Below the pieces are notes generated by a model, which was not told the origin of the DNA, made no database searches, and worked only from the letters and a program-made list of their open reading frames with translations. A stretch of 64,000 nucleotides of DNA from Vairimorpha necatrix. Lineage: Eukaryota. The stretch spans positions 434,001 to 498,000 of the forward strand of contig CP142735.1 of the NCBI GenBank assembly GCA_036630325.1, given 5' to 3'. The first letter of the stretch is position 1, and every line of letters starts with the position of its first letter. The translations under genes and the position numbers were made by a program. Positions 4,991-57,374 of this stretch are shown piece after piece.

Positions 4991-7900
4991 TTTTGGTTTT
5001 GAATACTCATGAATGAAAAGACTAACATGGCGAACACAAGAATATATGGGGTAAAAAGTGAGACCCGTGGCCAAGAGGAGAGAAACCTTTATAAAGAGCC
5101 CAAAATAATAGGAACAATGACAAGAATGAAAGTAGAGTTTAAAGACGCATATTTAAGGCAGGCACTAGGACAAGCAAGTGCTGAATCGCAGGATCTAATT
5201 ATTGAGGAAATATCAGTAATTAAAAAAATTAAAAATTAAGGAAATCGAAAAGTTGGTTAAAATGAAGAAGGGAAAGAAAAATAAGGAAGAAAGAATTAGA
5301 AGAGTTAGTTATAGGTATTAAACAAAAATTTAAGAAATAAGACTAAAGGGAACTGTGAGAAGAGTGGCAATGCCAGGGAAACATTATCAGCATGAAAGGT
5401 GAAGAGGCGAAGTTTTGTACGTGGAAAAATAGGACATATAGTTAGAAGCTGTATGAATCGTTGAGAAAAACAAGAAGAGGAAAATGAAAAGAAAAATTTC
5501 GAGTTTTCTGGTATTTGTGAAAATAATGTAGCAAATAAACTAAATTATACGAAAAAAATTACTATAAATTGAGAATATCAACAGTGAATATAAGTGAAAA
5601 TAATAGGAGATGTCAAGATATGAGGAATATGAATAACCATTCTACTGACAATAGTAACACGGAATTTAATTATTTACGCAAGATAAATGAGTATGTGATT
5701 AAGGTGTGTAAAGAGTCTTATTAGGGTACATAAAGTGATAAAAAGGGTTTGAAATATGAGGAGTTGTTGATCAGTTTGCAGATGATTAAAACCATTGGAA
5801 ACAAATATATTAATTTGGACAAAGATAATATGTTTTTTAAGGCTACTTAAAGGTGCAAAACATGTGAAAAGATATCACTCAATTTTAAAAGTGCAAAAGA
5901 AGAGACGAGGAGATACTTTCAGAATGCAGAAAACGAAGGCGTGGCAAAGATATTTAATTCTGATTGGATGAGCTGATACGAGAGATTGAGAAGCCTAATG
6001 GCGATGAATCGAATTGTGAGCAAACTATGGGGTTGAATGATTTGGTCGAAAAGACCATCATATGTTAGCTACTATAAGAGACATTATTCAAGCGACTCGA
6101 GGATCGTCGATATTTAGTGTGATTAATCCCAAGGAAGGTTTTAATTACATAGCCATTGAACTGAAGTACGAACAAAAAACAGCTTTTATTTGATGGTAAT
6201 ATGTTAAAGTGAAACAGTATGATGATTAAATTTATGAACTCACCTTAGATAATACAGAAAACGATGCATGGAGATTGTAGAGGAAATTAGAGGAAATGAA
6301 GTAGAAGTATACTGAGTCGATTTGGGTTTCGCGCTAAATATGTTATGCGACAACAATAGGATTTTTAGGTTTAATATAAAAGGTTTCAAAAGTATGTCTA
6401 AATCCTAATCTTAAAAAAAAACAATGCAGGAAAAGTTAAGATATTTATTAAGTGTGTCAATCGATGAAAATAATAAGAATCCACCGTAGATAACGAGAAA
6501 TAAAGCGCTAATATATAAACGAGCGGAGTTCATGAAGGAATTGCTGGGATTTTGGGGCTTAGCAAGCTGGTTTAGAGAATTTATAAAGAACTTGCAACAA
6601 TTACATAAAACTTGTTTGAGGCATTAAAACGAGTACAAAATGAGAGTGAAACGACATTTTGAATTTACCTCATTTTAGAAGTAAGATTTAAGCAATTTTT
6701 TAGCCTCTTAAGGTACCAGGCTAGAACAAATAATTTAGGTTACGTACAGATGCGTCGTATTCATGACTGGGAGAAGTACTTTTACAGAAGAATAAAGCAG
6801 GAAGTAGTAGTAATACAATATGCTCTAAAAATATATTTTTTTAACAGAGAGAATATAAGCTATAAAGGAAAAGAAATGTTAGAGGTTGTATAATGATTAG
6901 AAAGGTTTTCTTACGAATTAAAGGAAGGGAATACGAGTTAATAAAAATCATAAAGCCTTGGATGAGATCAAGAACAAAGCTTCTTTAAAAATAACAGAAT
7001 AAACCGATGAATTGAAAGAATACAGCAGTATGACATTGACGACAATATGTAAAAGGTGAATTATTGCAAATGTGGATGCATTTAATATACAATATCAACA
7101 TGATAAAGATAAAAATGAATCTAAAATTAAAGAAAAAGCTACTGCACAAATTAATGGGAAAATTGAAAAACTTACTTGTTCAGAGATAATGTGAGTATTG
7201 GGAAATTTGATAATGAAGTACAAATGAACATTCTCAATTTGGAAGAGAGATCAAAAATAGTAAAGGACATACATGAGAGGTTAAATCACAGAGAGGCAAA
7301 AGGAACATATTATGAGCCAAAGAAACATTATTATTGGCCTGAGATGAAAGATCAGGTAATTTGTGAAATGAGAGCATGTGTGAAGCGTCAGATAGGCAAT
7401 AGGAAGAATAAGGGGGAGTTGATTTTGTTATATCGAGTTATAATACGAGAAATGTGCGATTGATTACCCTAGAAAATTTGTTTTGATAAGAATTAACTAT
7501 TATACTCGATATTTGTATGCTAGTGTCTTAAAAGACAAAAGTACAAAGATGATTATTAGTGCTTTGAGGTATGGTTTTTAGAAAGAGATTGTTATCTGAA
7601 GGCGAATATGGGGTAGTCTGAGGCTTGGTATTTGAAAAAAAAATCTTTTTAAGAGACACATCATTTATTTATATAATTTCTTTATATTGTTTTATTCTCG
7701 GCCTGAAACAATCATGTTTCAGGTTGAGATGAAACGTTTGAAATATCTTGTTTCAGTCCTTTATTGGTGCCGCAAGTGATGGCGGTAACAGAGATAAATC
7801 CGAAATGATTATAAGCATAAAGCCATTGCGTTTGTAGTCGAAGACTTGGGGAAGTGGTGTTTTCTAAGCAGATCGAACATAAGCAGGTTAGCATGAAAGA

Positions 7901-8396
7901 ACATAGAATCAACGGCCACGTTTAAGGGCGTTAAGAATGATTTGTGAAAGCGTGTTGAACAAAGTTCGGATGACGTTGAAGCTGCAGTGAATAAGATAAC
8001 AGTGATGTATAATGGAACGTTTTATAGCCGACTTAAACGTTTTCCCTTAGATGTTGTTAACGAAATAAATAAAGACGTAGAGGTAAAGTGTTGAAACACG
8101 GTGAATAAAAACTATGTCAAGAAATTTATTAAAAAGATAGAAAAGGGTTTTAGTAGGTTCGGATTGTAAATTTTGCAAAGGGAAAAATTTTTGGTGGGTA
8201 GGAAACAGGATAGTGGGAATAAGAAAGAAAAAGCAATATTCTGAAAATATGAGAGAAAAAATTGTATCTAGTAAAGACCTAGGATGAAAATTTAATAAAA
8301 AAATGACATTAGACCTTAAAGTAATTGTAGAATTAAGACTAACTATCTCGAGGGGGGAATGTTAGGCGTAACCCCTCATGAATAACCAACTCAACA
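4991..8396 (+). mobile_element. Heavily degraded Ty3/Gypsy element B with putative 37-bp LTRs
   Basis: Fragments of zinc knuckle, RT, RH (TDAS) and IN (HERLNHR..YYWP). PPT GAGGGGGGAA precedes TGTT at 8360. 4991-5027 vs 8360-8396 match at 21/37. Flanks TTACA/CTACA. PBS TGGCGAAC. Confidence 0.7.
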
Positions 8397-8751
8397 CTAC
8401 ATCAAATTATATTTTTAATAAATGACACAAATTTTTTCATTCACGTGAATATTTTTTTCTTAAAAAGCTAGTAAATATGTTCAGGGATTTCGTAACGATC
8501 TGTCATTTTTTAATATATAAAAAACTTTAAAGAAAGTAAAAACTTAAACTTTTAATATTTCAGTTCAACTTACAATAAGAAAAACTAATTATATTATGAT
8601 TTAAACAACGCCATACAAGACACCGTTTTATAACTATTCGATCGAGTTTTATATGCAAGCTAATTTTCTTAATCAATACATATAATTTATAAAGAATAGG
8701 TCTTAATACGCTTAAATTAATTTCATATAAATATTATAATTTTTTTACCGT

Positions 8752-10866
8752 ATGAATATTTTTTTCTTTATTATTTTAATACAAGGTTTTAATAATATCT
8801 ATAATACAATCAAAAGTGTAATTATCAATAAAATAGAGAAAAGAGAATTTCTTACGATTGACATCGAAACACATTATTTAAGAGTTGATCTATGGTTCAA
8901 TAAAAATAAAAACGAACTTAATGCAGATTTAGTAAGGAAAATTTATTATTCGGAAATTATATATGAAAGAGGATTTATAAAAGTCCTTTGTACCAACAAG
9001 TCTATTGAAAACATATGTACAGAATTCGAACAAAAATTATCTCAAGAATATTATAAGAATTTGGACGTTTCAATTGTGTTAATCTACGATACAGCATATA
9101 TTGAATCATATCAAATCTACTGTGAAATAGTTAATTTTTTAAAACAAAAAAATCATGAAAAAAAAACAGGGAAATTTAGTTCAGAATTATATTATGAAAA
9201 TATAATTGAAAACAATAGACTATGGAATAGAATGTTCAATGTTAGAAAAGTCGGAAACAATTACTACTATAATTCCGATATTGTTAGTCTCGATTCGCCT
9301 CTCCAATACATAAAAAAGAACAACGATCGGTTTATATCATTTTGTAAAAATTTTGAAAATGTTTATTATTTCTTTGATTTAGATGCCAAAGAATTTTATA
9401 CTGATGATTTTTTTTCTTTGTTTAAAGTAACACTAGAATACGAGAATGAAGACGAAATTCTTATTGTAAAAAATCTGCTAGAATTATATAAACACATACA
9501 TATTGACTTTATGTATATTTATTATAAAAATTTAATTGAAGAGATATCATTAAATAAGATCAAATTTTACGACTTTTCTTTTATGGCAAAAATTGAAAGC
9601 AATACCATAAGATTTATACATAATTCTAAGGAATATGTTTATTATATACAAGAAAGTGCAGATATGAACAATAATTTTACTGTTATTGATTTTGATTGTT
9701 TTTCAAGCTTTCAAAAAATTTTTGGAAAAATATCAATAATAAATAATACTAAAAAATGTCATACAGTGATCGAATTGTTTTATCGATTAATGGAAAGCAA
9801 CTTGAAGGTAGAAGTTATTTTAGAAAGAATTTTAAGCAAATTAGGAACGGGGATTAATATTTTATTTTTACACTTATTATTAAATGAAGAGTTAATAAAT
9901 GAAAGCGAATTGAAGATGCATGTGGTAAGTGGAATTGATAGGTCAATATTCATGCAAAATTTATTGAAAAAGTTATCTGATAACATATTGAGTGCAAGTA
10001 CATATGTAATAAAAATTTGCATATTTATAGAAGGGGAAGATTTTATAAATGAAAACGATATAAATAAAGATATTTTTGGTACTATGAAAAAAATAGAAAA
10101 TCTTAATGCAGCAAAGAAAAATATACAAATCAATAAAAAAGATGAATTTTCGATTATAGATAAGAAAAAAGAAATTGATTTATTAAATATATACAAAACT
10201 GTCGTGGAATTTTATTTAAAGGATATCGAAAATTTTAAAGAGACTGTTTGGAAACATATTTTTAAACTGGTGTCATTGTTTACTGGATTAGATGCAACTA
10301 TTTGTGAAATATATTGTGAACGTCTTTGCATTAAAAAACATGAAGTTATTAGAGACTTGAGGCTTGATATTGGCGATATAGAATATACTAACAAAATAAT
10401 AAGCAAGAATTTATCAAAAGCTGCCCAAGAAGATGTATTAAAGAAAAATGTAAAATATCTAGAAGCCCAAATATATATCATGCAACAAAAAATGAATGAA
10501 AAAACGTTAGATTATGAACATATGAAAAAATATAAAGAAGAAGTAAAAAAGATACTTAATAAAATTAATCAAAAAACATTTAATAAAATAATAAAGGACG
10601 CAATAAACAAAGAAGTTGAAATCTTATACGATGACGATGTAATCACCAAATTAGAAAATAAACTAGAAAAAATTGTTCGAAAAGAAATCAGAAAAGTTTT
10701 TTGTGATACCTCGATGAAATGTCTTGTTAATCAAATCCATGTACTTCTTGGAAATGTTTTAAGCGAATATGAAATTGAAGAAATCGAAAATGTTTGCCGA
10801 GTTTTACGATTTAATATCAAAGAACACATTAAAAAGAATAGTAAAGAATACTTTATACAGATTTGA
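8752..10866 (+). CDS. Uncharacterised predicted secreted protein, paralog of 25487-27889; homology continues past an in-frame TGA to 11070
   Basis: 704 aa ORF with hydrophobic N-terminus MNIFFFIILIQG. Blocks shared with the paralog: YLRV, VLIYD..YIES, RFISFC...YYFF. Confidence 0.85.
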   Translation: MNIFFFIILIQGFNNIYNTIKSVIINKIEKREFLTIDIETHYLRVDLWFNKNKNELNADLVRKIYYSEIIYERGFIKVLCTNKSIENICTEFEQKLSQEYYKNLDVSIVLIYDTAYIESYQIYCEIVNFLKQKNHEKKTGKFSSELYYENIIENNRLWNRMFNVRKVGNNYYYNSDIVSLDSPLQYIKKNNDRFISFCKNFENVYYFFDLDAKEFYTDDFFSLFKVTLEYENEDEILIVKNLLELYKHIHIDFMYIYYKNLIEEISLNKIKFYDFSFMAKIESNTIRFIHNSKEYVYYIQESADMNNNFTVIDFDCFSSFQKIFGKISIINNTKKCHTVIELFYRLMESNLKVEVILERILSKLGTGINILFLHLLLNEELINESELKMHVVSGIDRSIFMQNLLKKLSDNILSASTYVIKICIFIEGEDFINENDINKDIFGTMKKIENLNAAKKNIQINKKDEFSIIDKKKEIDLLNIYKTVVEFYLKDIENFKETVWKHIFKLVSLFTGLDATICEIYCERLCIKKHEVIRDLRLDIGDIEYTNKIISKNLSKAAQEDVLKKNVKYLEAQIYIMQQKMNEKTLDYEHMKKYKEEVKKILNKINQKTFNKIIKDAINKEVEILYDDDVITKLENKLEKIVRKEIRKVFCDTSMKCLVNQIHVLLGNVLSEYEIEEIENVCRVLRFNIKEHIKKNSKEYFIQI

Positions 10867-11434
10867 AAAGTTTTTTTTGAAAGTACTTTATATAATGACG
10901 ACCATATAAAAGCAAAACAAATAAAAAATTACAAGACTTTTACCTCCATGTTGAATGATAAAGACTTTTTAGAAATTACAGATAAGGGGTTGGGAATAAA
11001 ATTACATGATGATTTGTTAGAAATTTTTAAAGAAGTTGAACACGAAACATTAATTAATAAAAGTATCTAAGTTACATATTTAGTACAAACGAAACTAATT
11101 TGCTTTTTTGGAAAAATAACTATGTATTAACAAACAATTAAAACTTAATTTATGTTGTATATCGATAATGCCATTTTAAATAGATTTAGTTTTTAGTATT
11201 TAATATCTAAAAGGCAAGTCATTGCTTAAAATATTTGAGCCCTTGCAACTGCATTATATTAGTCTTTAGATATGCATCGTAACTTCATTGTTTAAACGTG
11301 ATGTAAATAAGCATCTTAACAAAGACCATAGTGCACAATATAGTCATGTTTGGAACAACCTCTTAGTTTATTATGTGCGTATTATTGTAGTCCGATAAGA
11401 CTCCCTGCGCTTACACAAAAAAATATTTAAATAT

Positions 11435-11544
11435 TGTAGGAAGTGCTACACATGTCAAATATATTGTGTCATTGTTTTGATATATTTGACATGTCGTTTC
11501 TTTAAATATTTTATAATAATTAAACCCATGTTTTTATCCCAACA
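11435..11544 (+). repeat. 5' LTR of element C
   Basis: Identical to 15023-15132. Confidence 0.97.
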
Positions 11545-14500
11545 ATTTGGCGACAACGTCAGGAACTTTCTCATTTTCAGAAATGAAGAGAAAGATGATC
11601 CACAGCAGTTCTTGGAGGACTTGCAGGATGTGGGGAGGCTGATGGAGTACAGTGAGAGTAAACTTGTACTCCTTTTCAGAATGTCGTTAAAAGATGAAGC
11701 GAGGGATTGGCTGATAGCGCAGCCAATTGGTCTGTCACTTGAAAGACTGAAATTTTTGTTTCAAGAAAGATTTGTGGGTTTTATGGCGATGAAAGTGAGT
11801 ATAGATAAACTTTCCGCCCTTCAATATCATGGTGGATCGCTAATCAACTATCTAGATAAGATGGCGGGATTGGCGCGCAGGGCGAATGTTCCGGAAGGTG
11901 TATTAATTGCTTTTGTACTAAAAGGAATTCCGAACAATATAGCAAATTCGATCTTAATAAATAACAAAGACTCATTATCCTGGGAGTACCTATATAAAGC
12001 CATAAGGAATGTTTTGGAAGTGAATGATACACGTCATAAAGAAATTTCGCGTGGAGATTATGTGGATGTAAAAGCGATTAGCTGCAAGGACCACGATAGA
12101 AAGATTTGGACTTCTAAAAGGAACAAAGAAAAGAGATGTTTTATTTGCGGAAAGAAAGGCCATACAGTAGCACGGTGTAAATTTAATAGTTACCGTAGAG
12201 ATATTAGCGAAGTCAAGAAACCCCAAGAAGAAGGAGAAAATAAGAAGGTGGATGTAAAGGAATTTATTTATAATTACTCTGTTGCAAAAGTCAAGGATGA
12301 TAGGACTACGCTCAAAGAAGCGTCACTAAATAATTCGGAAGTTAAATTTAAAGCGCTCATCGATACTGGTGCTGATATAAATCTAATTAGACCAGAGATT
12401 TTGCCAAATAAAACCGTTGTTAATCGTTCTAAACAACAGCTTAGGGCAGCCAATGGATCGAAAATAAGGATCATTGGAGAAACAGTAGTTAAAATAAAAA
12501 TTGAGGGAATGATATTTGAAGATAAATTTATTATTACTAGGGATATCACAATTCCCTGCATTATAGGACAGGGGTTACTAGACATGTACAAGATAAATTT
12601 AAAATTTGGAAGTAACAAAATGGAAATTGAATCTGGACTTTTGGCAAAGGGAAAAGCCATAGGATATCATAAAATTATCACAAAGAATGATAACCCAATA
12701 CTATCTCAGTTATACAAATTGGGGGGAGCAAAAGAGGATATTGCGTCCCAAATAGTGAAAGAGTATCTAAAACGTGGAATAGTTAGACCAAGTGTAAGCG
12801 CATGGAGAAGCCCGATAATTATAGTCCCTAAAAAGAATGGAGACCACAGATTATGTGTGGATTATCGAAGATTAAATGATGCGACTATTAGAGATGCGTA
12901 TCCAATGCCTAGAGTAGAAGAGTTCATCAACGCTTTAGAGGGTGCAACATATTTTACTAAATTAGACGCTGAATCGGGCTATCACCAAATAGATATGGCG
13001 CCTTGTGATATTGAGAAGACAGCCTTTGCCTGTAGAGAAGGCTTATTTGAATTTACAAAAATGCCATTTGGACTTGTTAATGGTCCAGCTACATTTCAGC
13101 GGGTGATGAATAACATATTGAGGGAATTTTTGTTTAAGTTTGTGGTAGTATATATGGATGATATACTGATTTATAGTAAAACTGAAGAAGATCATAAGAA
13201 AGATGTTCAGATGGTATTAGAGAAGCTCAAGTCGGTAGGACTGAAACTTAATGAGGATAAATGCGAATTTAATAAGACCGAATTAAAAATTTTAGGTCAT
13301 GTGATATCAAAAGAGGGAATAAGTGTGGACGAAGAAAGGGTTAGGAGCATTCAACAGTTACCAATTCCTAAAAGTAAGAAGAAATTACAATCTTTGTTGG
13401 GGCTGTATAATTATTGCTCTAAATTTATTAAAAACAGCCATAAAGTGGTTAGCCCACTATTCGATATAATAAGACTCAAGAATGAGGACGCTGATATTTT
13501 TTGGAAAAATGCAGAGAATGATGCAAAATACTGCAAGGCAATCGAAGAGGTAAAACAGGCTATGAAGAGAACAGCTTTATTGACAATTCCAAATTTAAAG
13601 GATAAATTTATATTGACTACGGATGCATCGAATGAGGGAAGTGGGGCAACATTGGCTCAGATGGTCGGAGGAAAAGAAAAGATTATTTCTTATTACAGCT
13701 CTTTACACTCCAAGACAGAAAAAAACTATTCTACTACTGAGCAAGAATTGCTAGCAGTTATAAAATCGATCCAAAACTTCAGGGAATATTTATTATTGGG
13801 GAAATTTACGCTAAAAACGGATCATCAGGCTTTAAAATATTTGTTTAAGTCTAGGAATGTAAAAGCTAGGTTGGCTAGATGGTCATTACTGCTACAAGAA
13901 TATGATTTCGACATTGAATATATTACAGGACCATCAAACCATACAGATCACCTAAGCAGAGATTTTAAAAAACAGGAGGAAATAGTTTCAGAAATAAGTT
14001 CAATACAAAGGAAAATAGTTAAAAAAGAAAGGACAATAGTGCTATTAAAGTTTTACCATGATTTATTAGGGCATGGATCAAAACAAAATATGAAATATAA
14101 TATTGGTCGAAAATTTACTTGGAAGAATATGAATAGAGACATAGAAAATTATGTAGATAATTGTGAAATTTGTCAAAAAGAAAAACCTCAGAGAAAATTT
14201 AGAGATATTGTACCATTAGTAACAAAGACAATAGGAGAAATCTGGGAAGTAGACATAGTAGGGCCCTTGAGAGAAAGCGAGCAAGGATATAAATTTTTAT
14301 TGACAATGATTGATCACTTTTCGAAAATTGCAGAGGTGGTGCCGATTTATACAAAAGATATGAATACGGTTATTTATCTGATAGATAAACATATAGTCAG
14401 GAAGTATGGTATTCCAAAGGCCATTTTATCTGATAATGGTAAAGAATTCAGAAATAATATCTGTGAGGAATATGCGAGATCCAAAAAATTCATCTGGAAA

Positions 14501-15016
14501 TATGGTTCCCCTTATAAACCTACAACCACGGGGCTTGTTGAGAGGTTTAACAGAACAATAGCCATAAAATTAAGGAAGGTTACAGAATTTGGGAAATTTG
14601 ATTGGGCGAAATGTGTCCCTAAAGTAGTCCGAGCTTATATGCAATCATTTCATAGGGCTATAGGGTGTGCACCAATAGAACTCTTAACAGGAATAGTTCC
14701 AAATAAGATAGATATACAGGAAGGAATGCATCTAACAAAAGATAAGAAAGAGTTTCAGAAGCAGGCGATTAAGAATTTGGAAGTTTACAGACAAGAATAT
14801 GACACGGGAAATAAAGCTAATGCTGTTGATAAGGATGCCATTAAGGTGGGAGATAGAGTTTGGTATCATTTAATTTTACCGTTTAGAGGAAAACTCGAAC
14901 CAAAATGGGAAGAAAAAGGAGTGGTAGTAGATAAAAAATTTCATTCATATAAAGTTTTATTAGATAATGGAAAGACTGTTACAGCAAGTCGAAATCATGT
15001 TAAGCTTTTAAAGTAG
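11528..15016 (+). CDS. gag-pol: Gag-Pol polyprotein of element C (ATG inside the LTR)
   Basis: CFICGKKGHTVARC, LIDTGAD, YMDD, TDAS, HHCC, and D-SDNG-E integrase motifs in Gypsy order. ATG is preceded by CCC. Confidence 0.95.
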   Translation: MFLSQQFGDNVRNFLIFRNEEKDDPQQFLEDLQDVGRLMEYSESKLVLLFRMSLKDEARDWLIAQPIGLSLERLKFLFQERFVGFMAMKVSIDKLSALQYHGGSLINYLDKMAGLARRANVPEGVLIAFVLKGIPNNIANSILINNKDSLSWEYLYKAIRNVLEVNDTRHKEISRGDYVDVKAISCKDHDRKIWTSKRNKEKRCFICGKKGHTVARCKFNSYRRDISEVKKPQEEGENKKVDVKEFIYNYSVAKVKDDRTTLKEASLNNSEVKFKALIDTGADINLIRPEILPNKTVVNRSKQQLRAANGSKIRIIGETVVKIKIEGMIFEDKFIITRDITIPCIIGQGLLDMYKINLKFGSNKMEIESGLLAKGKAIGYHKIITKNDNPILSQLYKLGGAKEDIASQIVKEYLKRGIVRPSVSAWRSPIIIVPKKNGDHRLCVDYRRLNDATIRDAYPMPRVEEFINALEGATYFTKLDAESGYHQIDMAPCDIEKTAFACREGLFEFTKMPFGLVNGPATFQRVMNNILREFLFKFVVVYMDDILIYSKTEEDHKKDVQMVLEKLKSVGLKLNEDKCEFNKTELKILGHVISKEGISVDEERVRSIQQLPIPKSKKKLQSLLGLYNYCSKFIKNSHKVVSPLFDIIRLKNEDADIFWKNAENDAKYCKAIEEVKQAMKRTALLTIPNLKDKFILTTDASNEGSGATLAQMVGGKEKIISYYSSLHSKTEKNYSTTEQELLAVIKSIQNFREYLLLGKFTLKTDHQALKYLFKSRNVKARLARWSLLLQEYDFDIEYITGPSNHTDHLSRDFKKQEEIVSEISSIQRKIVKKERTIVLLKFYHDLLGHGSKQNMKYNIGRKFTWKNMNRDIENYVDNCEICQKEKPQRKFRDIVPLVTKTIGEIWEVDIVGPLRESEQGYKFLLTMIDHFSKIAEVVPIYTKDMNTVIYLIDKHIVRKYGIPKAILSDNGKEFRNNICEEYARSKKFIWKYGSPYKPTTTGLVERFNRTIAIKLRKVTEFGKFDWAKCVPKVVRAYMQSFHRAIGCAPIELLTGIVPNKIDIQEGMHLTKDKKEFQKQAIKNLEVYRQEYDTGNKANAVDKDAIKVGDRVWYHLILPFRGKLEPKWEEKGVVVDKKFHSYKVLLDNGKTVTASRNHVKLLK

Positions 15017-15022
15017 GGGTAG

Positions 15023-15132
15023 TGTAGGAAGTGCTACACATGTCAAATATATTGTGTCATTGTTTTGATATATTTGACATGTCGTTTCTTTAAATATTTT
15101 ATAATAATTAAACCCATGTTTTTATCCCAACA
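15023..15132 (+). repeat. 3' LTR of element C
   Basis: Identical to 11435-11544. Confidence 0.97.
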
Positions 15133-18200: not shown

Positions 18201-18566
18201 ATATGTTCCCGAATAAACCTTTACCCCCTACTAATTTTCAAAAGGTCAAAGAAAAAACAATATGAGGAGATTCTAAAATTCAACGAAAGAAATAAAAACC
18301 GAGAAACTAAACCTCATTTTTCAGAGGGAGATAGGGTTATTATAAAAACGGAAACAGGTATCAAAAAGGGAGAACCCAGGTTTAAGGTTAGAGGTTTAAT
18401 TTATAAAGTTTTAAAAACAACACATATCTAGTGAGGACAGGAAACAAAACTATTAAGCGGCATTCTTCTTAGCTGAAATTGATAATGGACGAATGTTTTT
18501 AAGAGAAGGATGTTAAGATTTAAAAAATTAAATTTTATACCCTTAATTTTAGGATAAATATGTTTA
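15247..18566 (+). mobile_element. Degenerate Ty3/Gypsy element D with 56-bp LTRs
   Basis: Direct repeats 15247-15302 and 18511-18566 (4 mismatches), flanks ATAGT/GTAGT, PBS TGGTGGAC, PPT AAGAGAAGGA. Frameshifted fragments: CFRCRRPG, FDSGA, YVDD, ERFNRT. Confidence 0.9.
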
Positions 18567-18605
18567 GTAGTATAAGGGATATACAGAATTAAGAGAAATG
18601 ATAAA

Positions 18606-21810: not shown

Positions 21811-22262
21811 ATTTGTATATTCTGTATTCGTTCACTGAACCCCCGTCTACACTTAACTTAAACAAAAATTCCCGCGTGTCTGCTTCCAGTGTCTTCAGGG
21901 CTAAAAAAAAAATATACGAAGCACGAAAAGGAAAATTACAAACACCAAAAAAAATTGGTGGATTTGAAGAAGTGACACAGACCGATGAAACTGTTATAGT
22001 AAAGTGTAAAATTGTCAAATCTCCTTCAGAAAGATATGACACAGTCAAGAATTGTACGTGGTTGGTTGGGACGATAGACGAGCGAACATTAGAACTGAGA
22101 ATCGAAATAGTACCTAACCGGACTATACAGACGATGACTCGGTTTTTATAAAAAACATAAAAACGACACGATATGCAAAACTGATGGGCATAAATCTTAT
22201 CCCGCAGCAGTAGAATCTATCAACGAATGATCATCGCGTTGTAATTCATGATGAAGGCTTTA

Positions 22263-27925: not shown

Positions 27926-27967
27926 AAATTAATATATTTGTAATTTTGTAGTTATAATATATAGAAC

Positions 27968-44360: not shown

Positions 44361-45107
44361 TGCTGAGCATAATATTTAATAAATTTAACCCTTCTTAACT
44401 TACAATTATCTTTAACATGGTAGAGAATAAAATCAACCTAAACAAAAAAATAAAAGAAGAGATTGTAAGTTGTCGAGGCATGAGATGTAAAAAAATTAAG
44501 TTTAGGTTAGAATGGGGATGGTTGGTTGTCTAACAGAATAGAAGGTGGTGGCTTGCATCAGTCGAGGACTCGGATAGGTGAAGACGTGGAGGTGCAATGA
44601 AGAGCTATCAAGAATCAGTATTGACTGAAATAAGATCTGGCATAAGATATATGCAGGTTGAGTGTAGTAGTAATCCCAATATTCGCACTTAAAGCTATTG
44701 TGGCAAGATAGCTAAACTACATGTGTTCAAAAATCCAGAGAGATTTAAAAAGAGAAGAAAATCAAAAAGAAGTTGTGTTGTAGTTGAAGAATGAGATAGA
44801 CGGATAACATCCGGTTCCATTGTTCGGAAGACATGTGTAAAGAACCCCCACATGCCCATAGACTTTGAGCACTTTAATAGGGAAAGAAGTACCGTAAAGA
44901 CTAATACAAGAAGGGGTAGTAAGAAGCGAAAGAGTAAAGCGCAGCCCATGGTCAATTAACTTAAAAAAATGCATTTTATTTGAAAGCCAAGTGGTACGCG
45001 TAGGGAGTAGTAAAGATAATTACATCACTCAGTTCTAAATTTAGCGCAGAGATGTTGAGAATATATATTGAATGAAATTAACCCTTAACTTACAATTATC
45101 TTTAACA
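44361..45107 (+). mobile_element. 747-bp TRIM-like non-autonomous LTR element
   Basis: 57/55-bp direct repeats 44361-44417 and 45053-45107, perfect TSD CTATT, PBS TGGTAGAGAAT, no recognisable pol. Confidence 0.8.
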
Positions 45108-46081: not shown

Positions 46082-47924
46082 TTAATGAGATACTTGATTT
46101 TGCATGTCATCTGCAATTTAGTCATAATTAATGATATAAGATGAATTGGCAGCTCTTAAACAGATATCTAAATGTTTGTCCGTAAGTTGTGTTCGATATT
46201 CGAATTTAAATACGTCATATTCGAAAAAAGAGCTTCACAATTATATGTGGTAACACAATATTAAATATTTTGAGTGCACATTTTCTTAAAATAGGAAAAC
46301 TATTATCTGAAACCAATTTCCAAAAGTCCTTGTCTAAATAATGATATTTTAAAACTATATCATTCTTCAAATTAACTATTTCAATTTCTAAGTCGTCCAT
46401 GTTAACTATATGAAAAAAATTAGAAATTTTTACTGGTAAATCATAATCAAAACATTAAAAGGTTTGCAAAAAATGGAATTATTTCCTCTAATGATCAAAA
46501 ATCATGAAATCTTTTAGAAAACTCAATCAGTAATAAATCTATTGCGCCTATGTACGATGTATGATCGAATTCATGAATACTTAAACTTATTTTTTCAATT
46601 ATTAACTTAGTATTTTGAAAATGAGATAAGGATTTCTTCATTAAATGTATTTTAAAAAGTTCTAACTTATTTGCAAAAGAATTAATTAAGCTCATCATAT
46701 CTGCAATATGTGAATTCTTTTGTTGTAATTTTAAATTTAGTTCGTTAAATTTCATTGTGATATCCGCTAAAAATCCAAGATCTAATAGCCAACTTTTGTT
46801 TTCTAATTCTATATAAGTTTCATTTCTCATTGCAATAAATTCCTTTAGTTGAGGTAAAAGCTTAATAAAGCGTTCAAGAACTTTGCCTCGGCTAAGCCAT
46901 CTCACTTTTGTATGAAGAACTAAATCTTTAAAATCTGCTTTTTCTTCCTTCATAAGCAGCTTAAATAGCCTATGTTGAGTGGCTTTGGCTCTTATAGAAT
47001 TTATAATTTTAGTAACAATTAATAAAAAATGATTTAAATTAACACTTTTTGAAAATAAATCTTGTTGATGAATTATACAGTGATATGAAATAAACTTTGG
47101 AAACAAAGAATCTTTTCTACATAAATCAATAAATCCGTTTTCTTTTCCGACCATTGCTCGTGCACCATCAGTAGTAATAGAAGAAAGTTTTCGAAGTGGT
47201 ATATTTTTATCGACAATAAATTTTTTAAATAAAGAAAAAATGTCTTTTCCCGTTGTACGAGCAGTTAAAGGTAGAATTTTTAAAAATTCCTCTTTAGTTG
47301 AAAAGTCATTAAATACCATTTTTATAGAAACAATTAGTTGTGCTGTGTCAACTACATCGGTAGATTCATCAAGCTGAAAAGAGAAATACATACAATTATT
47401 TAAGTCTTTATCTAATTTTGATTTTAAATTATTAGCAATTAATTCTATTCTTCTTGATGCAGTTCTAGCTGATAACTGCAACATATTAATAGCTTTTAAA
47501 ATTTCTGTCTTGCTTTCAAAATCTTCAAAAAGAGAATCCGCCGCTGTTATCATAGCCTCTTTTATAATTTCTGCATCAGTAAAGGGTTTTTTTTTTCTTA
47601 GCCAACAGATGTGCAACTTTTAGTGAAGCTTCAGTGGCCGCCTTTGAAAGCTCTTTTGGCTTTGTAAAACATCTCTGCTGTTTTACAATTGCTGATTTTA
47701 AAGATATCAACTTACTTTTTCGCAGTTCGGACTTCAGTGGGCATTCAATATTTATATTTTCATGCAAACTATTGAAGTGTCGTTCTAAGTTACTTTTTTT
47801 GCATATTGCAATGATTTTGTTGCACAATAAACAAATGCACTTACCTTGAAATTCTAAAAAGAAAAAATCTTCATCCCATAAATTATTGAATTGATAATTT
47901 CTTCCTTTTTTTTGAAGGTTCCAT
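46082..47924 (-). pseudogene. hAT transposase, frameshifted
   Basis: BED-like C..C..NLERHF, LDESTD, TDGARAM, HCIIHQ, RWLSRG and terminal QVSH* motifs. Confidence 0.92.
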
Positions 47925-48061
47925 AAAGGGTAAAAAAATTTGTAATAAATTTTTAAAATCTATTGAATGTTGAATTAGCATTTTTTATGGCAAGATTATT
48001 GTCAAAATAATTATTAAAGAACTTTATAATTGAAATATATAAGTTTATTGTTACAATCATC

Positions 48062-51000
48062 GGTTAAATTGCGATGTTACCCCCCGCCCCTAAAAAAAAT
48101 AAAAAAGGAATAAAATTATGCTCCTAAAATGAACATACAAAATTTTAGAAAATTAATATATAAAAAAGAGGAATTATTTTTATTTCTTCTTGAAAAAAAT
48201 ATATTAAAGGTACCAATGTGCAATAAGTGCATGACACCCATGACCAAAATTAGAAATAATTTGGACAAATATCGTTGTTACTTACGACGAATTGGGAGAA
48301 AATGCCCAAACAAAGGTAACATTTACAAAGAAAGCATTTTTAAAAGTTCTAGGTTAGACATCGAAGATCTTTTAATTTTGCTGTGTGAATGGGTTAAAGG
48401 TGTAAGCAATGTTTCGGCTACTATCGAATTGGATATAGATAGTAGTACCGTATCTCGCTGGTTTACGCGTTTTAATAACGCTGTATTCTTATCCTATTTC
48501 GACTACCTTCAAAACAAAACCATAGGAGGTTTAATTGCGTAGTTGAAATAGACGAGACATTGCTTGTTAAAAGTAAAAACCATAACGGTAGAATCCTTCA
48601 ATACCAAGTTTGGGCCGTTATTGGAGTTGTACGAGGAGACAGCAATTCTTTTTTTTTCGAAATTGTTGAAAATCGATCAAGAACTACTCTTGTCGATTTA
48701 ATAAAACGGAAAATCGCACCTGGATCTACAATTATTACTGATTGTTGGCGGGGTCATGAGGGGTTTTCGGAACTATGTCCGGATTATAACTATTTACATT
48801 TAACTGTAAATCATAGCCAAAATTTTGTAAATCCAACAACAGGCGCCCACACCTAACAATTGAGGGAATGTAGTCTGTAATTAAAAGGGAATTGCGCAAA
48901 GAAGGAACAAGCCATGGTTCTTTAATGAATCTCATTCGAAAACTTTATATGGCTCGTTTTAAGTTAATTTATAGAGAATCACTACTTGAAAGAATGTTAT
49001 GCTTTTTTGAGATTAATAATATATCTGTTACCAGCGAAGGAGCTGGTGGTGGGAGAAGACTTGCTTTTAGAAGTAACTTGTTTATTTGGCATGCGTATTT
49101 TAGGGGTCTCCCTTAAATACTTTTCTTTGTTTGTTTGTTTACATGACAAGCGATGACAGTAAACAAACAAACAATAATGTTAGGGAAGGCACTTTAGCCT
49201 TATAACAAGCGGATCTGATATATCCGGTAACACTCTCCCCTCCTTAAGACAAGGCTTCACTTCCAGGGAAGAGGTAGTATCTTCTAACATTTTTCCGTCC
49301 TTTTCATACACTACGAAGTCACATCGATTTATAAGATGTTCTATTCCATTCTCTAGGCTTTTTACTTTATAAGCGCCTTTAGTCTTGTTCTTTGTAACGA
49401 TATACGGTCCTATATATTTCTTGTCTAGTTTACTAGACATGTTCCTGTTTTTGATAAAGACAAGAGACCCTTCTTTTACGTCGTCAGCAATCAGTTTCCC
49501 TTTCATCTGTCCTTTATGCTTCTTAATCTTACTATTATTAATATCACATATAACTTCTTTTATCTCATTAGTTACTGTAGTACGCTCATTAAGGTATTCT
49601 GCTGGATCTATAAATAGCATTTCAAAGTCACTCGGAAGTTCTTTGATTATCTTAGGCAATGCGCCTTTCCTCCCATAAAGCATTTCAAAGGGGGACATCT
49701 TTAGTTCACCGATTGGGGACAGCCTATACTGCATAAGGATCAGTGGTAGTATTCTATCCCACTGATTTTGATAATCTGTTACCGCCTTTGCAAGTTTTAC
49801 AATCAGGCTTTGATTGGTCCTCTCTACAAGTCCATTGGATTGAGGGTGATACGGACTGGAATATCTAAAACGAGCGCCGAAGAGTTCCGAAATCTTCCTA
49901 ACAATCTGATTTGTGAACTCTAGCCCTTGGTCACTTCTTATTACGTCTACCGTTCCATGCCGGCTGAAAATATCCTCAATAATAAATTTTGCTATTTCAA
50001 ACGCAGACTTATGTTTTACCGCCTTGGCTTCTACCCATTTAGTCATGTAGTCCGTTGCTACGATGATAAACCTTTTTCCGGAGGAACAATTGGGCAGGGG
50101 CCCTATACAATCGATTCCAATCATTTTAAAGGCTGACTCGAGTTTTGAGGGAAGGTTACAAAATTTTTCCTAGGTTTCTTGTGCTCTATACGCGCCTGAC
50201 AACCGTTTTTTCTCTCCTGATATCTTTGGGGCTAATATCATTAGCCAGGTTCTGCGATTTTAAGAAGAGATTGTGGCCTCCGTACCTCCATGTCCTATGT
50301 AATGATGATTTTCTCTAATCATATCGTCTTTTGTTAATTTCGTGTCGGAACTTACGATATCCATACTCGACGCGTAAACCCTTGACAAGCAGTCTGGAAG
50401 GGTATGAGATTTCCCCTCCTTATATTCTATTTTGAATCTTAAATCGCTTAAGAACATAAGCCATCGTGCAATTCGTCCCTGGGGGTTCTTAACTTTATAC
50501 AGCCACTGTAGAGGTTTTTGGTCGCTTCTTATCAGGACCTCGTCGTGCAGATACATTTTAAAGGTTTCTACGCAGAATATTATAGCTAGGGCTTCTTTCT
50601 CCAGCGTCGTGTAGTTCTTTTCATGCTTATTAAGCTTTCGGCTAGCACAACGAATCGTTACTTCTTCTCCGTCTTGTACCTGTTTCAAAGCACCTCCTAT
50701 ACATTCTTCTGATGCATTTGCTTCAATGATAAACGTCAGCGTTAAGTCTGGGAGTGCCAGCCATGGCGTGAAATAAGTTCTTTCCTTAATGATTCAACGT
50801 CATTCCGCACTTTCTCTGTAATTTGAAGCTTTTCGTTGATTGTTCGATGTATTTCTAGCGCCTTTTTACTAAAGTTGTTTATAAACATCCGATAGAATCC
50901 CAGAAGTCCGATTATAGAGTGTTATTGTTTTGCATTTTAATTTCAAATTCTTTTTCTAAAGGTCCCATACGAGATTTATCTGAAGTGAGCTATCCGGATT

Positions 51001-53193
51001 TTACACTGTATCCCAAAATATTGATATCCTTTGTCATAAAGTTGCTTTTATCAAAGTTTACCTTAAGCCCGTTCTCTGCTAGAATTTCCAATACTTCTTT
51101 TAAGTGCCCATAATGCTCCTCTAAAGTCTTTGAGTATACAAATATGTCGTCTAAATAAACGACTGTGGTCCTATTTAGCTGTTTCCTGAATATCTTGTAC
51201 ATTAGGCTCTGAAAGGTAGCTGGAGCATTAGTGAGACCAAACGGCATTCTCTTAAATTGGAATTTGCCTGACGGTGTCATAAACGATGTGTACTTCTTAG
51301 ATGTCTCTTCCATTGGTATCTGGTAGTATCCCTTCTCTAGGTCTAGTTGAGAGAATATTCTTGCACCGCTTAGATATGTTAAGCATTCTTCAATCAGCGG
51401 TGGCTGACATACCTCTTTCACTGTATTATCATTAAGCTCTCTAAAGTCTATACATAGCCTATATTCACCATTTCTTTTCGGAGCGACAACCGTTGGGGCA
51501 TTCCAAACGCTTGTGCTTTCTTCTATCACGTTCGACTTTAGTAACCTCTCCACCTCCTCTTGGATAAACTTTCTTTTGTCGAGGCTCAGTGGGTAGTTTC
51601 GCTTGCATATTACCTTCCGTTCACTCAGTTCGATTTTATGTTCCACTAACTTTTTCTTTCCTTTTGCGGTTTCCAGCTTCCTTTTGTAGTCATTAATCAA
51701 TTTATGAACATTATAATTCGAAGATAGATCAGGTTTTGATAACTTTGACGGTGTCTTTTCTAAATTAAAAAGTTTATAGCACGTAATCGTTTTATTATCG
51801 ATTTTAACTGACTGACTTCCATAGTCTATTTGAACATTATGTTTCCTCATAAAGTCTATTCCTAATATTATATCACCTTCAAGGTCTTCCACTACAAATA
51901 ACGCTGTTCTGTAGTCATCATCATTAATTTTTATTTTAGTCTCCACTGAGTTTCTGATCTCAGTGCTAGCAAAGGCAGCTCTTAGGTTCACTCCTTGAAC
52001 GGGTATGAGCTTTTCTCTTCTGACAAGATCATGATTAATGAATGAATTTGATGCTCCCGAATCAAACAGTATCTTCACTCTCTCTCCTCGGAATAACCTA
52101 CTACTATATTAAAGTTATTATCCTCGGACGACGGAACTGCATTCATAGACAACACTTTCTTTCCTTCGTGTTTGCAGTCTCTAAATAGGTGCTCTCCACC
52201 ACACTTGTAACATTCTAACTTTCTCTTAGTGTTATTAGTTTTCTTTTTCATATCAGACTCGGAACTCCTCTCCTTTTGCTTTGAGTTTTCGTTTCTTGTT
52301 CTTACTGTCTCGATTAGTTTTATGTTGTTGCTGTGAATCTTTAATAGATCATTCCACGATGTGGTTTCCTCCACTCTTTCTTTTAATGATAGTGGGAAGT
52401 ACCTAGATAATTCTCCAATTATCTCAGTAACGTCAATTTTAGCCTTTTTGTTTAGCTTGATCAATTCGTAAACAAAGTCTTCTAAGTTCTGCGACTTCGG
52501 TCCAGTATACAGTTTCTTATAGAACGTTTTTACAGAGATGCTCCCTTCTCTGAGCTCTTCATTCCCATACTTGTTAAGAAATCTCTGTTTAAAGTCTGTG
52601 TAGGTTTCTACCTCATCTTCAATCATAGCCTCGTACCATAGTAGAGCCGAATCTCTTAAGTACTTCTTCGTGTACTTCATCAGCTTCTGATCCTTCCACT
52701 CTCCTTCAATGTAACTGAATTGGGTTAGCCATATCAAGGCATCCTTCCCAATTTCTCCTTGAAAATACAACATTCTGCTAGTTGTAACTCCCAGTTTTTC
52801 CATCATCGCTTCTAGTGTGTTGGTTTTGATCCCGTTGTCGCCAATGTTACCAGCGAAGGAGCTGGTGGTGGGAGAAGACTTGCTTTTAGAAGTAACTTGT
52901 TTATTTGGCATGTGTTTTTTATGGGTCTCCCTTAAATACTTTTCTTTGTTTGTTTGTTTACATGACAAGCGATGACAGTAAACAAACAAACAAACAATAA
53001 TGTTAGGGAAGGCACTTCAGCCTTATAACAAGCGGATCTGATATATCCGGTAACAATATCATTTTTAAATTACGATTTAGCGCCCGAATTTGATTTTGAA
53101 TTAATTGAATAAATTTTGTTTCCCCTTTTTTTATTTTTTCCCCTTTTTTTTATTTTTTTGGGGGTGGGGGGGGGGTAACATCGCAATTTAACC
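48062..53193 (+). mobile_element. Merlin transposon 3, relative of element 2, nested in the hAT 5' region
   Basis: TIR GGTTAAATTGCGATGTTACCCC, flanks CAATCATC/TAATCATC. Transposase 48129-53112 is broken by stops and by element G. Confidence 0.92.
49026..53055 (-). mobile_element. Defective Ty3/Gypsy element G
   Basis: LTRs 49026-49232 and 52845-53055, TSD ATATC, PBS TGGCGACAAC. Gag CYKCGGEHLFRDC, FDSGA, YLDD and SDQG motifs. Stops and frameshifts in pol. Confidence 0.95.
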
Positions 53194-53943: not shown

Positions 53944-56900
53944 TGTTAATATGTTTATTGTTATTATCCATAAAAATTAGGGGTTACATATAAAATATTT
54001 AAAAATTATCAACATCTCCCTCTACAAAATTGGCTCATCAACTAAAAGCTTTACCCGAGAAGCGTGTCTTTTTATTTTCTTTTTTCCTATCTTGATTATA
54101 AACGCATTATTTTTTAAAGCTTTATAAACACATCCCCGAACATTAAACTTGGGGCTTACCTTTTCCTATATTTCCTTCTTGTCTGATTAGCACAACCTCC
54201 CCTGGTCTAAACAATGTTCTTGCATACCTTTTCCATTCTTTTTATTGTATGTTATGATATTTTCCCTTTGAATCTGTCTTAGTTTGTCTTGTACATTTAA
54301 TAAGGTTGCATCTTGTAGAGTCATTAAGATTTCTTTATGAAATGTGTTGTTGTAAATCTCTATAGCTCTTTTTAACTTCGTTTTTAAAAAACTGTCTTCC
54401 TTATTCTTAAAAGTTAGATCTTGTAGTGTCCTATTAAATCTCTCTACTCTACCATTAGATTGGTGATGGTAGAGAGACGTATAATGTAACTCAATATTAT
54501 GATGCTTACAAAAATTGACGACCTTTGAACTTAAATTTTCTTTCGACTGATCTAATATAAGTGTTTTTATCTTAACCTTTTCGTTACTTCTTCTATAAAT
54601 CTTACTACCTTTTCATCGTTTTTTGAACTAAGAACTTTTGCAAAACCTTTTATAGTAAAATAATCAATAGCCGATATAATATATTGCTTCCCTATTGGGC
54701 CTATTATATCCACCGCAACCTTTTCTCCTCTTTCAAACGCCGTAACAAAAATAAACTTTTTTCTCTTTTTTGAATTATATTAACAACATATCTCACATTC
54801 ATTTACTACTTCCTTAACTAGTTTTTCTACCTTATTAATTTTGAGTCCTCTTTTTGTAATTTCATACTCTAATGAATGTTTCCCTCTATGTAATAGTTCT
54901 AAATGAATAGCTCGCACAATTTCTTTTTCTTCAACCTCATACTTCTCGATTTCTATATCCTTTCTGTTTTCTTTGTCTTCTTCCTGTTGTTTATTATCCT
55001 ACATTATTTCCTCATCTTCAACGAAATCAAAATTTCTGCTTAGACAATCTACGTGAGGTATGTCTTTGCCTTGTCTGTACGTCGCCTTAAAGCAATATCT
55101 AGACATTCTATCTAACCATCTTTGAATTATTGGGGAATTTATTTCACCTTTAATAAGCACTTCTAATGCTTTATGATCTGTAATTACCTCGAATTTTGCA
55201 CCATATAAAAAGTAATTCTAATTTTCCATGCCCTATAACATGGCTAAACACTCTTTCTCACTAATACCGTAATTAATTTCATGATCTTTTTGTTTTCTAG
55301 AAGCAAATGCAATAGGTATCTCCTCTCCATCAATGATCTGATTAAGCACTGCCGATTCCATACTTAGAAGCGTCAGCTGTCAAAATAAAATCTCAAGTAT
55401 AAATAGGTTGAAATAATTCTATGTTCGTTTGAGAATCTCTTTGATCTCCTTAGAAATTTTCTCTTCTTCCTCTGTTTAAATGAACTGTTTCTTGTCTTTT
55501 AATAATTCATACAGTGGACTACATATACCGGAGCAGTCTTTAATAAATTTTATATAATAGTTATTAGTTTCAAAAATTCCTGTAACTGTTGCTTATCCCT
55601 TGGTGATTTTAGATCTTCTATTCCTTGTAATTTATTAACTAACAGGAGTACCTTATTTTCTTCTATATGGTGTTCTAAAAAGTCGATTTCACGCTGTCTA
55701 AAACTAGATTTGTCTTCATTTATTTTAAGCTTGTTTCTATCCAAAGCTTCTTTAATTCTTTTGTATGTCTCATCATGTTCTTTTTCATCTCTGCCAAAAA
55801 TTAAAATATCATCACATAACAGAAACAGCTCTTTCCTATTTCTTCTTTAAGTGCAAAATCCATGAACCTCTGGAATATTACAGGTGAATTTTTGAATCTC
55901 TTTGGTCACACCTTCCATTCATACAGTCTATGTTTGAATCTAAATACTGTCTTGAATCTATCTCTTTCAATCAACTTAATTTGAAAACCCCCATATTCCA
56001 GATCCAACTTTGAGAAAAATTTTCTTCCACGCAAATTACATAAAATCTCGTCTATTCTGGGGATGGAATACCCTCCAAGTTCAACTATTTTATTTAACGC
56101 AACTAAATTTGTAGTCACTTGAATAGAACCATCTGGTTTTATTACCGGCCGAAGATTATTAAGCCATGTAGACTTAGACTCCTGAATGTATCCCTTGCTT
56201 AAAAGCTTCTGAATCGCCATTCCAACGCCTTCTTCCATGTTCTTTGACAATGTATATAAGCTCTACTACTTTTTTGCCCGCTTCCGTCTTGATTTCACAC
56301 ACATATCCTTCATCTTCTGTTTCCATCGTCTCCCTCATCCCATTTTTCCCGATCAATATTTTTTCAATTCTCACTTTGAGTAAAATAAAAAATTTTAAAC
56401 GATAAACTTGGGATTTATACGTCAATTCAATAAATGTATGTTTGTTTACTATGATAGGCTTTTCAAGGTAGGTCTTAAATACCATTTCTTTAGAATTCCA
56501 TTGAAATGGTAGATTAAACTTTTCAGCTACCGCGTTACTGATAAAGTTGTACGTTGATCCAGTGTCAAAAGTAACAGGAACCTCTTGTCCATAAAAATAA
56601 ACTGAATTTTCTTTATTTTTAATAATGTCTGATAATTCGGTGCTTATTTCATTCACTTTCTTACTTCCCTGTTGATTATAATTGGTTCCCATACGACAGT
56701 TTCTTGCAATATGTCCTAATTTTTGACAGTTGTAACATTTAATGGTTTGTTTAGTAGTTTCGATTTTTAAACTTTCAAGTTTCTTCAGTAAATCTTGCAT
56801 TTCTTGTTTTCTCTTATTTTCTTCTAAACATTCTTCTTCTATGATTGTCAACTTATCAATAATTTTTTCATCCAAAGATCCACTAATTTCCAAAAAATTT

Positions 56901-57374
56901 TTTACTCTTCCAAGTTCATCTCTTATCCCACCTGTAATAATCTCAATTATTTCTTCCTCTTTAAGTTTAAACATCCGTGAGGACGACTTTACATTCTCGA
57001 TGTACTGTTTAATGCTTTCGTATTTGTCTTGCTTCATTCGGTAAAGTTTTGCTAAAGACACTTTTTTACGTCCGAATGTTTCTGAAACCTTCAAGTATTT
57101 CACAAAGTTCATTTTTGTACAACCTAAAATAGTCTCGTAGTGCCAATCGAGTAAATCGTAACTGGCTCTACTCACAATCAATTCAATCTTTCTCTCGTCC
57201 TCCATATTCTTAAAGAAGGACATCAACTCAAGTCTTCGTATCTCATTTACTATATTATCTCTATTAATCTCTTTATTCATGGGTTCTCCCTCATTCTCCA
57301 CCATGTTAATATGTTTATTGTTATTCATTCTAAAATTAGGGGTTACATTTAAAATATTTAAAAATATATCAACA
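53944..57374 (-). mobile_element. Degenerate Ty3/Gypsy element H with 71-bp LTRs, related to D
   Basis: LTRs 53944-54014 and 57304-57374, perfect TSD GATAA, PBS TGGTGGAGAAT, PPT GTAGAGGGAGA. Gag-PR ORF 57328-56174 with CYNCQKLGHIARNC and FDTGS. Confidence 0.93.

Follow-up and report, generated by a model that had tools for sequence, protein, structure and literature searches.

Long terminal repeats of 56-71 bp in compact Ty3/gypsy elements of a microsporidian genome and a possible host-type start signal within them

Introduction

The closest described counterparts of the elements reported here are the Ty3/gypsy retrotransposons of the microsporidian Anncaliia algerae, for which 50 complete consensus sequences are given in Supplementary Table S1 of Parisot et al. 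2014 (PMC4202319). In our hand count of that table 49 consensuses span 3127-4330 bp and the remaining one has 2584 bp, the open reading frame (ORF) starts inside the long terminal repeat (LTR) in 43/50, and the LTRs are mostly 105-272 bp, with shorter ones in retro S (45 bp), retro L (50 bp), retro CK (73 bp) and retro BU (90 bp). Given that retro L, S and CK are present in 19-45 copies per strain (Table S2 of the same paper), these short-LTR families have amplified, and short LTRs in compact microsporidian gypsy elements are already on record; they are tabulated in the supplement, and no discussion of them was found in the accessible part of the article's text. Here we analyse a 64-kb stretch of Vairimorpha necatrix DNA (assembly GCA_036630325.1, contig CP142735.1, positions 434,001 to 498,000, forward strand; the whole stretch is referred to as the window), which contains two Ty3/gypsy copies, D and H, and a non-coding miniature, T, with LTRs of 55-71 bp, together with an old gypsy relic, B, whose candidate LTRs are 37 bp.

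Outside microsporidia, the shortest LTRs documented in this comparison, as far as the available parts of the sources extend, are those of two plant elements. FRetro129 (SMART) of grasses is 292 bp long with 85-bp repeats, TG..CA ends and a 5-bp target site duplication (TSD), and FRetro64, its candidate autonomous partner, measures 5234 bp and carries LTRs of 76 and 90 bp (PMC3281118). These elements resemble the short-LTR elements of the window in having LTRs below 100 bp, TG..CA ends and a 5-bp TSD; they differ in being plant Ty1/copia elements with longer LTRs and, in FRetro64, an internal region of about 5 kb, and an ORF start inside the LTR is not reported in the available part of that article. 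Animal gypsy LTRs used as training sets average 174-695 bp (PMC3601003, in the part accessible). For microsporidian genes, the accessible part of PMC2803860 describes 5' untranslated regions (UTRs) of less than 7 nt and a CCC-like, sometimes GGG-like, motif directly before the ATG, following an A/T-rich or AAATTT-like tract.

Results

Short terminal repeats and their boundaries

The repeat pairs were recovered by a repeat search and self-BLAST of the window, and the boundaries were then set by reading the junctions. The four elements and their parts, including the primer-binding site (PBS) and the polypurine tract (PPT), are as follows.

15247-18566, + strand: element D, degenerate Ty3/gypsy copy, 3320 bp, 56-bp LTRs
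15247-15302, + strand: D, 5' LTR
15303-15312, + strand: D, PBS
18501-18510, + strand: D, PPT
18511-18566, + strand: D, 3' LTR
53944-57374, - strand: element H, degenerate Ty3/gypsy copy, 3431 bp, 71-bp LTRs
57304-57374, - strand: H, 5' LTR
57290-57303, - strand: H, PBS
54015-54025, - strand: H, PPT
53944-54014, - strand: H, 3' LTR
44361-45107, + strand: element T, non-coding, resembling a terminal-repeat retrotransposon in miniature (TRIM), 747 bp
44361-44417 and 45053-45107, + strand: T, LTRs (57 bp and 55 bp)
44418-44430, + strand: T, PBS
45044-45052, + strand: T, weak PPT
4991-8396, + strand: element B, remnant of an old gypsy element, 3406 bp, with candidate LTRs of 37 bp
4991-5027 and 8360-8396, + strand: B, candidate LTRs
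5028-5040, + strand: B, PBS
8350-8359, + strand: B, PPT

The LTR pairs of D (52/56 identical) and H (67 identical in 73 aligned columns) were each found with a self-BLAST E-value of 8.7e-17, and the pair of T (49 matches, 5 mismatches and 4 gap columns) gave a 46-nt BLAST high-scoring segment pair (HSP) with E 8.6e-6. D has the PBS TGGTGGACAC, the PPT AAGAGAAGGA and the TSD ATAGT/GTAGT (4/5). H ends in TG..CA and has the PBS TGGTGGAGAATGAG, the PPT GTAGAGGGAGA and a 5/5 TSD, and T likewise ends in TG..CA, with the PBS TGGTAGAGAATAA, the weak PPT GCGCAGAGA and the TSD CTATT/CTATT (5/5). In all of B, D, H and T the PBS begins with TGG, and both PBS and PPT abut the LTRs with zero spacing. The chance of finding a TSD at fixed positions is 0.0019 for 5/5 and 0.025 for at least 4/5.

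A preliminary description made from the letters of this DNA had proposed TSD-bounded repeats of 56 bp (D), 71 bp (H) and 57/55 bp (T), and all of these lengths and coordinates were reproduced, as were the TGG PBS and purine tract that it saw in the four elements, the tract being weak in T. It had named the 37-bp repeat of B as the weakest case, and this was borne out: the pair shares 24 identical positions in 38 aligned columns and gives no BLAST HSP, the TSD is 4/5, and TG..CA ends are present in the 3' copy only, the 5' copy beginning with TT. B nevertheless has the PBS TGGCGAACAC and a strong PPT, GAGGGGGGAA. The Jukes-Cantor distance between the members of an LTR pair is 0.03-0.10 in the short-LTR copies and 0.44 in B.

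Coding remains of B, D and H, and the miniature T

B, D and H are all pseudogenes, their longest open pieces being 98, 210 and 399 aa, respectively. In a domain scan that covered 48 ORF pieces, H showed zf-CCHC, protease (PR), RVT_1, RT_RNaseH, Integrase_H2C2 and rve_3 in this order, and D showed RVP_2, RVT_1, RNase H, Integrase_H2C2 and rve_3 on broken ORF pieces, without gag. B showed only Integrase_H2C2 (7167-7460, E 2.9e-8) and three weak collinear tblastx HSPs to the reverse transcriptase (RT) of a neighbouring element, E. The earlier view of B, D and H as full-length gag-pol elements thus holds for D and H in so far as they keep PR-RT-RNaseH-integrase (IN), but not for B, which has just Integrase_H2C2 and a faint RT, and none of the three is intact. 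D and H are dead copies of compact Ty3/gypsy retrotransposons and B probably is as well; their lengths (3320, 3431 and 3406 bp) fall within the 3.1-4.3 kb of microsporidian gypsy elements. A single gag-pol ORF is seen only in the intact neighbours A and E, D, H and B being too broken to show one.

Over 824 nt of collinear internal DNA, D and H are 67-76% identical (E 8e-29); they are two diverged members of one lineage, both with short LTRs. Neither has DNA similarity to the neighbouring elements A, E, F and G beyond short RT stretches. When the gag-PR ORF of H (399 aa) was compared with longer proteins no match was found, which is weak evidence. The likeness of the LTRs among D, H, T and B appears to consist of short shared motifs and layout only. 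A claim of demonstrable sequence homology among these LTRs was also considered and was dropped after leave-one-family-out searches, which are given below with the other points that weigh on the interpretation.

T would be a non-autonomous miniature with H-like ends, TGTTGA...TTAACA followed by a TGGT PBS. It is present in one copy in the window, and its longest ORF from the ATG at the LTR-PBS junction has 38 codons. TRIM terminal repeats are usually 100-250 bp. T is like a TRIM in being less than 1 kb and non-coding with a PBS, a PPT, terminal direct repeats and a 5-bp TSD, and unlike one in that its repeats are 57/55 bp; it can be seen as TRIM-like in function and shorter in its repeats. An origin of T by internal deletion of H was considered and is unsupported, since the internal region matched none of the window elements in blastn and tblastx.

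A start codon inside the LTR

Four further Ty3/gypsy elements with longer LTRs are present in the same window and were compared with the short-LTR copies.

11435-15132, + strand: element A, intact, 3698 bp, identical 110-bp LTRs, TSD AATAT (5/5)
32375-36227, - strand: element E, intact ORF (1182 codons), 3853 bp, 124-bp LTRs (123/124), TSD ATTCC (5/5)
40013-43888, - strand: element F, relative of E with broken ORF, 3876 bp, 124-bp LTRs (122/124), TSD 4/5
49026-53055, - strand: element G, 4030 bp, 211/207-bp LTRs, TSD GATAT (5/5)

The long reading frame extends without a stop into the 5' LTR in A, E, F, G, H and B, and its first in-frame ATG lies inside the LTR, in general behind a CCC or GGG motif that comes after an A/T-rich run. 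The motif before this ATG and its position are as follows.

Element A: ..TAATTAAACCC before the ATG; ATG at LTR position 94/110
Element E: ..AAAGAGGGG (GAGGGG) before the ATG; ATG at LTR position 97/124
Element F: ..AAAGAGGGG (GAGGGG) before the ATG; ATG at LTR position 94/124
Element G: GGGAGACCC and 13 nt before the ATG; ATG at LTR position 145/211
Element H: GTAACCCCT (AACCCCT) and 9 nt before the ATG; ATG at LTR position 47/71
Element B (3' copy): GTAACCCCTC before the ATG; ATG at position 19/37

A CCC or GGG triplet lies at most 15 nt upstream of 268 of the 2250 ATGs in the window (0.119) as compared with 6/6 of the LTR ATGs (P ~3e-6, or ~2e-4 when four independent lineages are counted). 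The meeting of CA at the end of the LTR with the TGG of the PBS creates a second in-frame ATG at the junction in six of eight elements (B, D, E, F, H and T). In E, F, G and H, and so in 4/7 families, the stretch from the LTR ATG to the end of the LTR contains the hexamer AATAAA, where 1-14% is expected for each; in B this stretch has no AATAAA.

The LTR can be read as holding a host-type start signal because an A/T run followed by CCC or GGG and an ATG matches both the published microsporidian signal and a host gene in the same window (25487-27928, - strand), whose start codon (27889) is preceded by a T-rich run and CCCCC. According to this proposal, the LTR would be bounded by integrase ends, TGTTGA-like on the 5' side and ..AACA on the 3' side, and would hold between them, in this order, an A/T-rich run, the CCC or GGG motif and the gag ATG with the first gag codons. 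Transcription may start a few bases before the ATG, and since it would start just before the LTR ATG, the R and U5 regions together would span only some 20-35 nt (A, B, E, F and H) or about 70 nt (G). The ORF would continue through the LTR end and the PBS, and the AATAAA in E, F, G and H may serve as the poly(A) signal. The short-LTR families would then differ from those with LTRs of 110-211 bp only in not having the extra upstream U3. The overall picture of a microsporidian LTR pared to a host gene-start module between integrase ends, with gag starting in the LTR, U5 and PBS being coding, the poly(A) signal read as Asn-Lys codons and an R plus U5 of about 20-35 nt, is quite possible, if short of probable, and we put it forward tentatively.

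The A, E, F and G group resembles the short-LTR elements in the 5-bp TSD and, with H and B, in an ATG in the LTR after CCC or GGG, and its members are single gag-pol ORF elements of 3.7-4.0 kb with TG..CA ends. It differs from D, H and T in having 50-140 nt more of upstream U3, which brings its LTRs to 110-211 bp, and in its PBS, TGGCGACAACG.

Comparison with the A. algerae families

The same layout was found in A. algerae. Retro L, S and CK are like D and H in belonging to a microsporidian host, in length (3127-3806 bp as compared with 3320-3431 bp) and in LTR length (45-73 bp as compared with 56-71 bp), and their LTRs show the plan described here, with a TGT.. end, an A/T-rich run, a CCC motif, an ATG in the LTR and a TGG PBS. 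In retro L (PMC4202319) the order read by eye is TGTT.., an A/T-rich run, ACCC directly followed by ATG, and ..GTTAACA directly followed by TGGCG, which is the same plan as in B and H. Also by eye, retro CK and the 3' LTR of D have a 17-nt stretch in common around ATACCCTTAATT, and retro CK and H both begin with MNNN. The A. algerae elements differ from D and H in the PBS (TGGCGTCAG as compared with TGGTGG), in coming from another genus (the host gene of the window being closest to Vairimorpha) and in being consensuses, where the window holds dead single insertions. The other 46/50 A. algerae consensuses are compact gypsy elements with longer LTRs, like A, E, F and G.

Alternative explanations

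Three other explanations of the short repeats were weighed. That they are chance matches in A/T-rich DNA is extremely improbable: the window is 68% A+T, two-copy short repeats are common, and similarity gives the B pair no significance, but the self-BLAST E-values are 8.7e-17 for D and H and 8.6e-6 for T, and correctly oriented gag-pol remains lie between the repeats, with each PBS, PPT and TSD at its expected position. We also think it very unlikely that the repeats are surviving cores of longer LTRs whose outer parts were deleted or decayed after insertion. The copies are old, and the length of B is uncertain given its divergent pair and the TT at the start of its 5' copy. In D, H and T, however, PPT and PBS fix the inner edges and the TSD the outer edges, and the copies of each pair have equal lengths (within 2 bp in T), which would not be expected from two independent deletions; in addition, A. 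algerae consensuses built from 19-45 copies carry LTRs of 45-73 bp. Both LTRs of a pair are copied from one RNA at reverse transcription. Given the pairs of equal length, the abutting PBS and PPT and the TSD at the outer edges, the LTRs of D, H and T are genuine LTRs well below 100 bp, as the preliminary description had suggested, and were already this short when the elements transposed. A third explanation accepts the short LTRs as real and holds that they are not self-sufficient promoters, the elements having relied for their transcription on read-through that began in A/T-rich flanks or in adjacent genes, or having been mobilised by other elements. In the 3' LTR of B only 18 nt precede the ATG and an A/T-rich run is absent, T as a non-coding element needs mobilisation in trans, all short-LTR copies in the window are dead, and transcriptional overrun is reported in microsporidia (PMC2803860, in the part available). 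On the other hand, the LTRs of D and H carry an A/T-rich run and a CCC-type motif like those of host genes, both elements encoded their own gag-pol, and A, E, F and G, whose ends and PBS (TGGCGACAACG) are unlike the TGTTGA.. and TGGTGG of D and H, are unlikely helpers. We regard this explanation as unlikely, though less so than the other two.

The interpretation that we favour, and consider probable, is that D, H and probably B are compact Ty3/gypsy copies and T a non-autonomous one, that their LTRs were short at transposition and that the LTR contains a host-type promoter. Several observations weigh against it. The CCC/GGG and AATAAA patterns were spotted post hoc, and the transcription start, the poly(A) site and the ATG used are predicted from the layout and its enrichment, which were themselves observed. 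D does not have the H-type ATG, which has been lost, and has an ATG merely 6 nt before the LTR end in a broken frame, and both of its LTR copies end in TG..TA and not TG..CA; T has the junction ATG only, and A has no AATAAA after its ATG. All short-LTR copies in the window are old and broken, whereas A and E, which are intact and young, carry LTRs of 110-124 bp, and an nhmmer search with a short-LTR model found no further copies or solo LTRs within the window. When nhmmer models were made from any two of the families D, H and T and run against the third, or from all three and run against B, the left-out LTR family was recovered in 0/4 tests (E <= 10). The link of retro CK to the D/H lineage consists of the 17-nt stretch and the MNNN start, both judged by eye. 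Finally, no convincing short LTR was found among the 80 of 247 related metagenome loci that were kept, on contigs that are not known to be microsporidian.

Neighbouring elements and the setting of the window

The window has 32% G+C and is made almost wholly of transposon remains, with at least eight Ty3/gypsy copies by Pfam matches, as well as Merlin-type (DDE_Tnp_IS1595) fragments, a hAT-like ORF and a DNA transposon bearing a helix-turn-helix (HTH) domain. Element A looks recently active, judging from its sequence. It has one frame of 1205 codons from stop to stop, and only about 6% of its length is non-coding; the polyprotein ATG (11528) lies inside the 5' LTR right after AAACCC, and the stop codon (15014-15016) lies within the PPT, six bases short of the 3' LTR.

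The 11-nt PBS TGGCGACAACG is identical in A, E and G and has one mismatch in F, and it lies inside the coding frame. Because it has been kept although the DNA of A, E and G is otherwise barely alignable, it points to one primer tRNA common to A, E, F and G. The sites are as follows.

11548-11558, + strand: PBS of A
36093-36103, - strand: PBS of E
43754-43764, - strand: PBS of F
52833-52843, - strand: PBS of G

No tRNA genes were found within the window. The PBS sequences available for comparison with tRNA 3' ends are TGGTGGAG.., TGGTAGAG.., TGGCGACAACG and TGGCGAAC. Inspection of the LTRs, by eye only, showed no sequence complementary to the PBS that would suggest Tf1-type self-priming.

The host of the window is a microsporidian, to judge from the relatives of two of its proteins. 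The host gene product has a single named relative, which is uncharacterised and comes from Vairimorpha necatrix (38% identity, E 7.6e-129), and the best named relative of polyprotein A (ORF 11399-15013) is from Enteropsectra breve (35% identity). The best relative of polyprotein A overall is a 1166-aa protein on a 3512-bp contig; in the Protein Atlas it fell in generic gypsy clusters only, without useful taxa. Single-ORF gypsy elements and abundant Merlin elements have been described for microsporidia in the accessible part of Parisot et al. 2014 (PMC4202319). The remaining features of the window are as follows.

25487-27928, - strand: host gene, 813 codons, closest named relative the uncharacterised Vairimorpha necatrix protein
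8740-10866, + strand: paralogous ORF of the host gene, 708 codons
30585-31325, - strand: Merlin-type transposase fragment, DDE_Tnp_IS1595, E 5.9e-10
48114-48853, + strand: Merlin-type transposase fragment, DDE_Tnp_IS1595, E 9.2e-8
46495-47959, - strand: hAT-like remnant, BED/Spin-doc-type zinc finger followed by a weak DUF4371 match
22247-22422: array of a 22-bp unit (TTTGCATTTTTTTAGTCCAACT)
23516-23649: array of the same unit, inverted
22430-23140: ORF of 236 codons with weak HTH matches
36277-37467, - strand: integrase-only gypsy fragment adjoining the 5' end of element E
3-3112, - strand: gypsy element cut by the window start, with gag, PR, RT, RNase H and the start of IN, its 3' LTR being outside the window

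The paralogous ORFs at 8740-10866 and 25487-27928 both have hydrophobic N-termini and no Pfam family, and look like a lineage-specific gene family amid transposons. The two 22-bp arrays flank the 236-codon ORF, and the region 22247-23649 looks like a DNA transposon with subterminal repeat arrays. The Merlin superfamily, to which the two transposase fragments relate, is reported as abundant in microsporidia (PMC4202319, in the part accessible).

Related loci were also sought elsewhere. None were found in viral contigs. Of the 80 metagenome loci kept out of 247, 11 had repeat pairs, and four of these pairs were contig-end overlaps. One locus (L047:4914-8476, on a 72-kb metagenome contig of 41% G+C) is a compact gypsy element of 3563 bp with LTRs of about 165 bp, TG..CA ends and the PBS TTGGTGACC, and compact gypsy elements thus exist also beyond this genome.

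Discussion

LTRs of 56-71 bp are unusual among LTR elements generally and ordinary for microsporidia. The present analysis adds no new class of element; it confirms such LTRs in a further genus, describes a miniature derivative and proposes a mechanistic interpretation of the LTR. That reading is plausible and was not found stated in the literature, as far as the accessible parts of the sources go. No account of LTR design or of TRIMs in microsporidia was found in the literature covered, and Xu et al. 2006, on LTR elements of Nosema bombycis, fell outside this coverage and may bear on the novelty.

LTRharvest and LTR_FINDER have a default minimum LTR length of 100 bp. LTR finders run at this minimum would miss whole microsporidian gypsy lineages, leading to a biased view of transposon content, insertion dating and gene calls, and start codons inside the LTR would be mis-set. 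If the 37-bp repeat of B is a real LTR, it lies below the 45 bp of the shortest LTR given for an autonomous element in the A. algerae table and would mark a lower bound for the needs of an LTR. The layout described here provides a compact natural case of minimal U3, R and U5 in organisms where host promoters and UTRs are themselves minimal, and the tiny LTR may be the mobile-element counterpart of microsporidian gene compaction.

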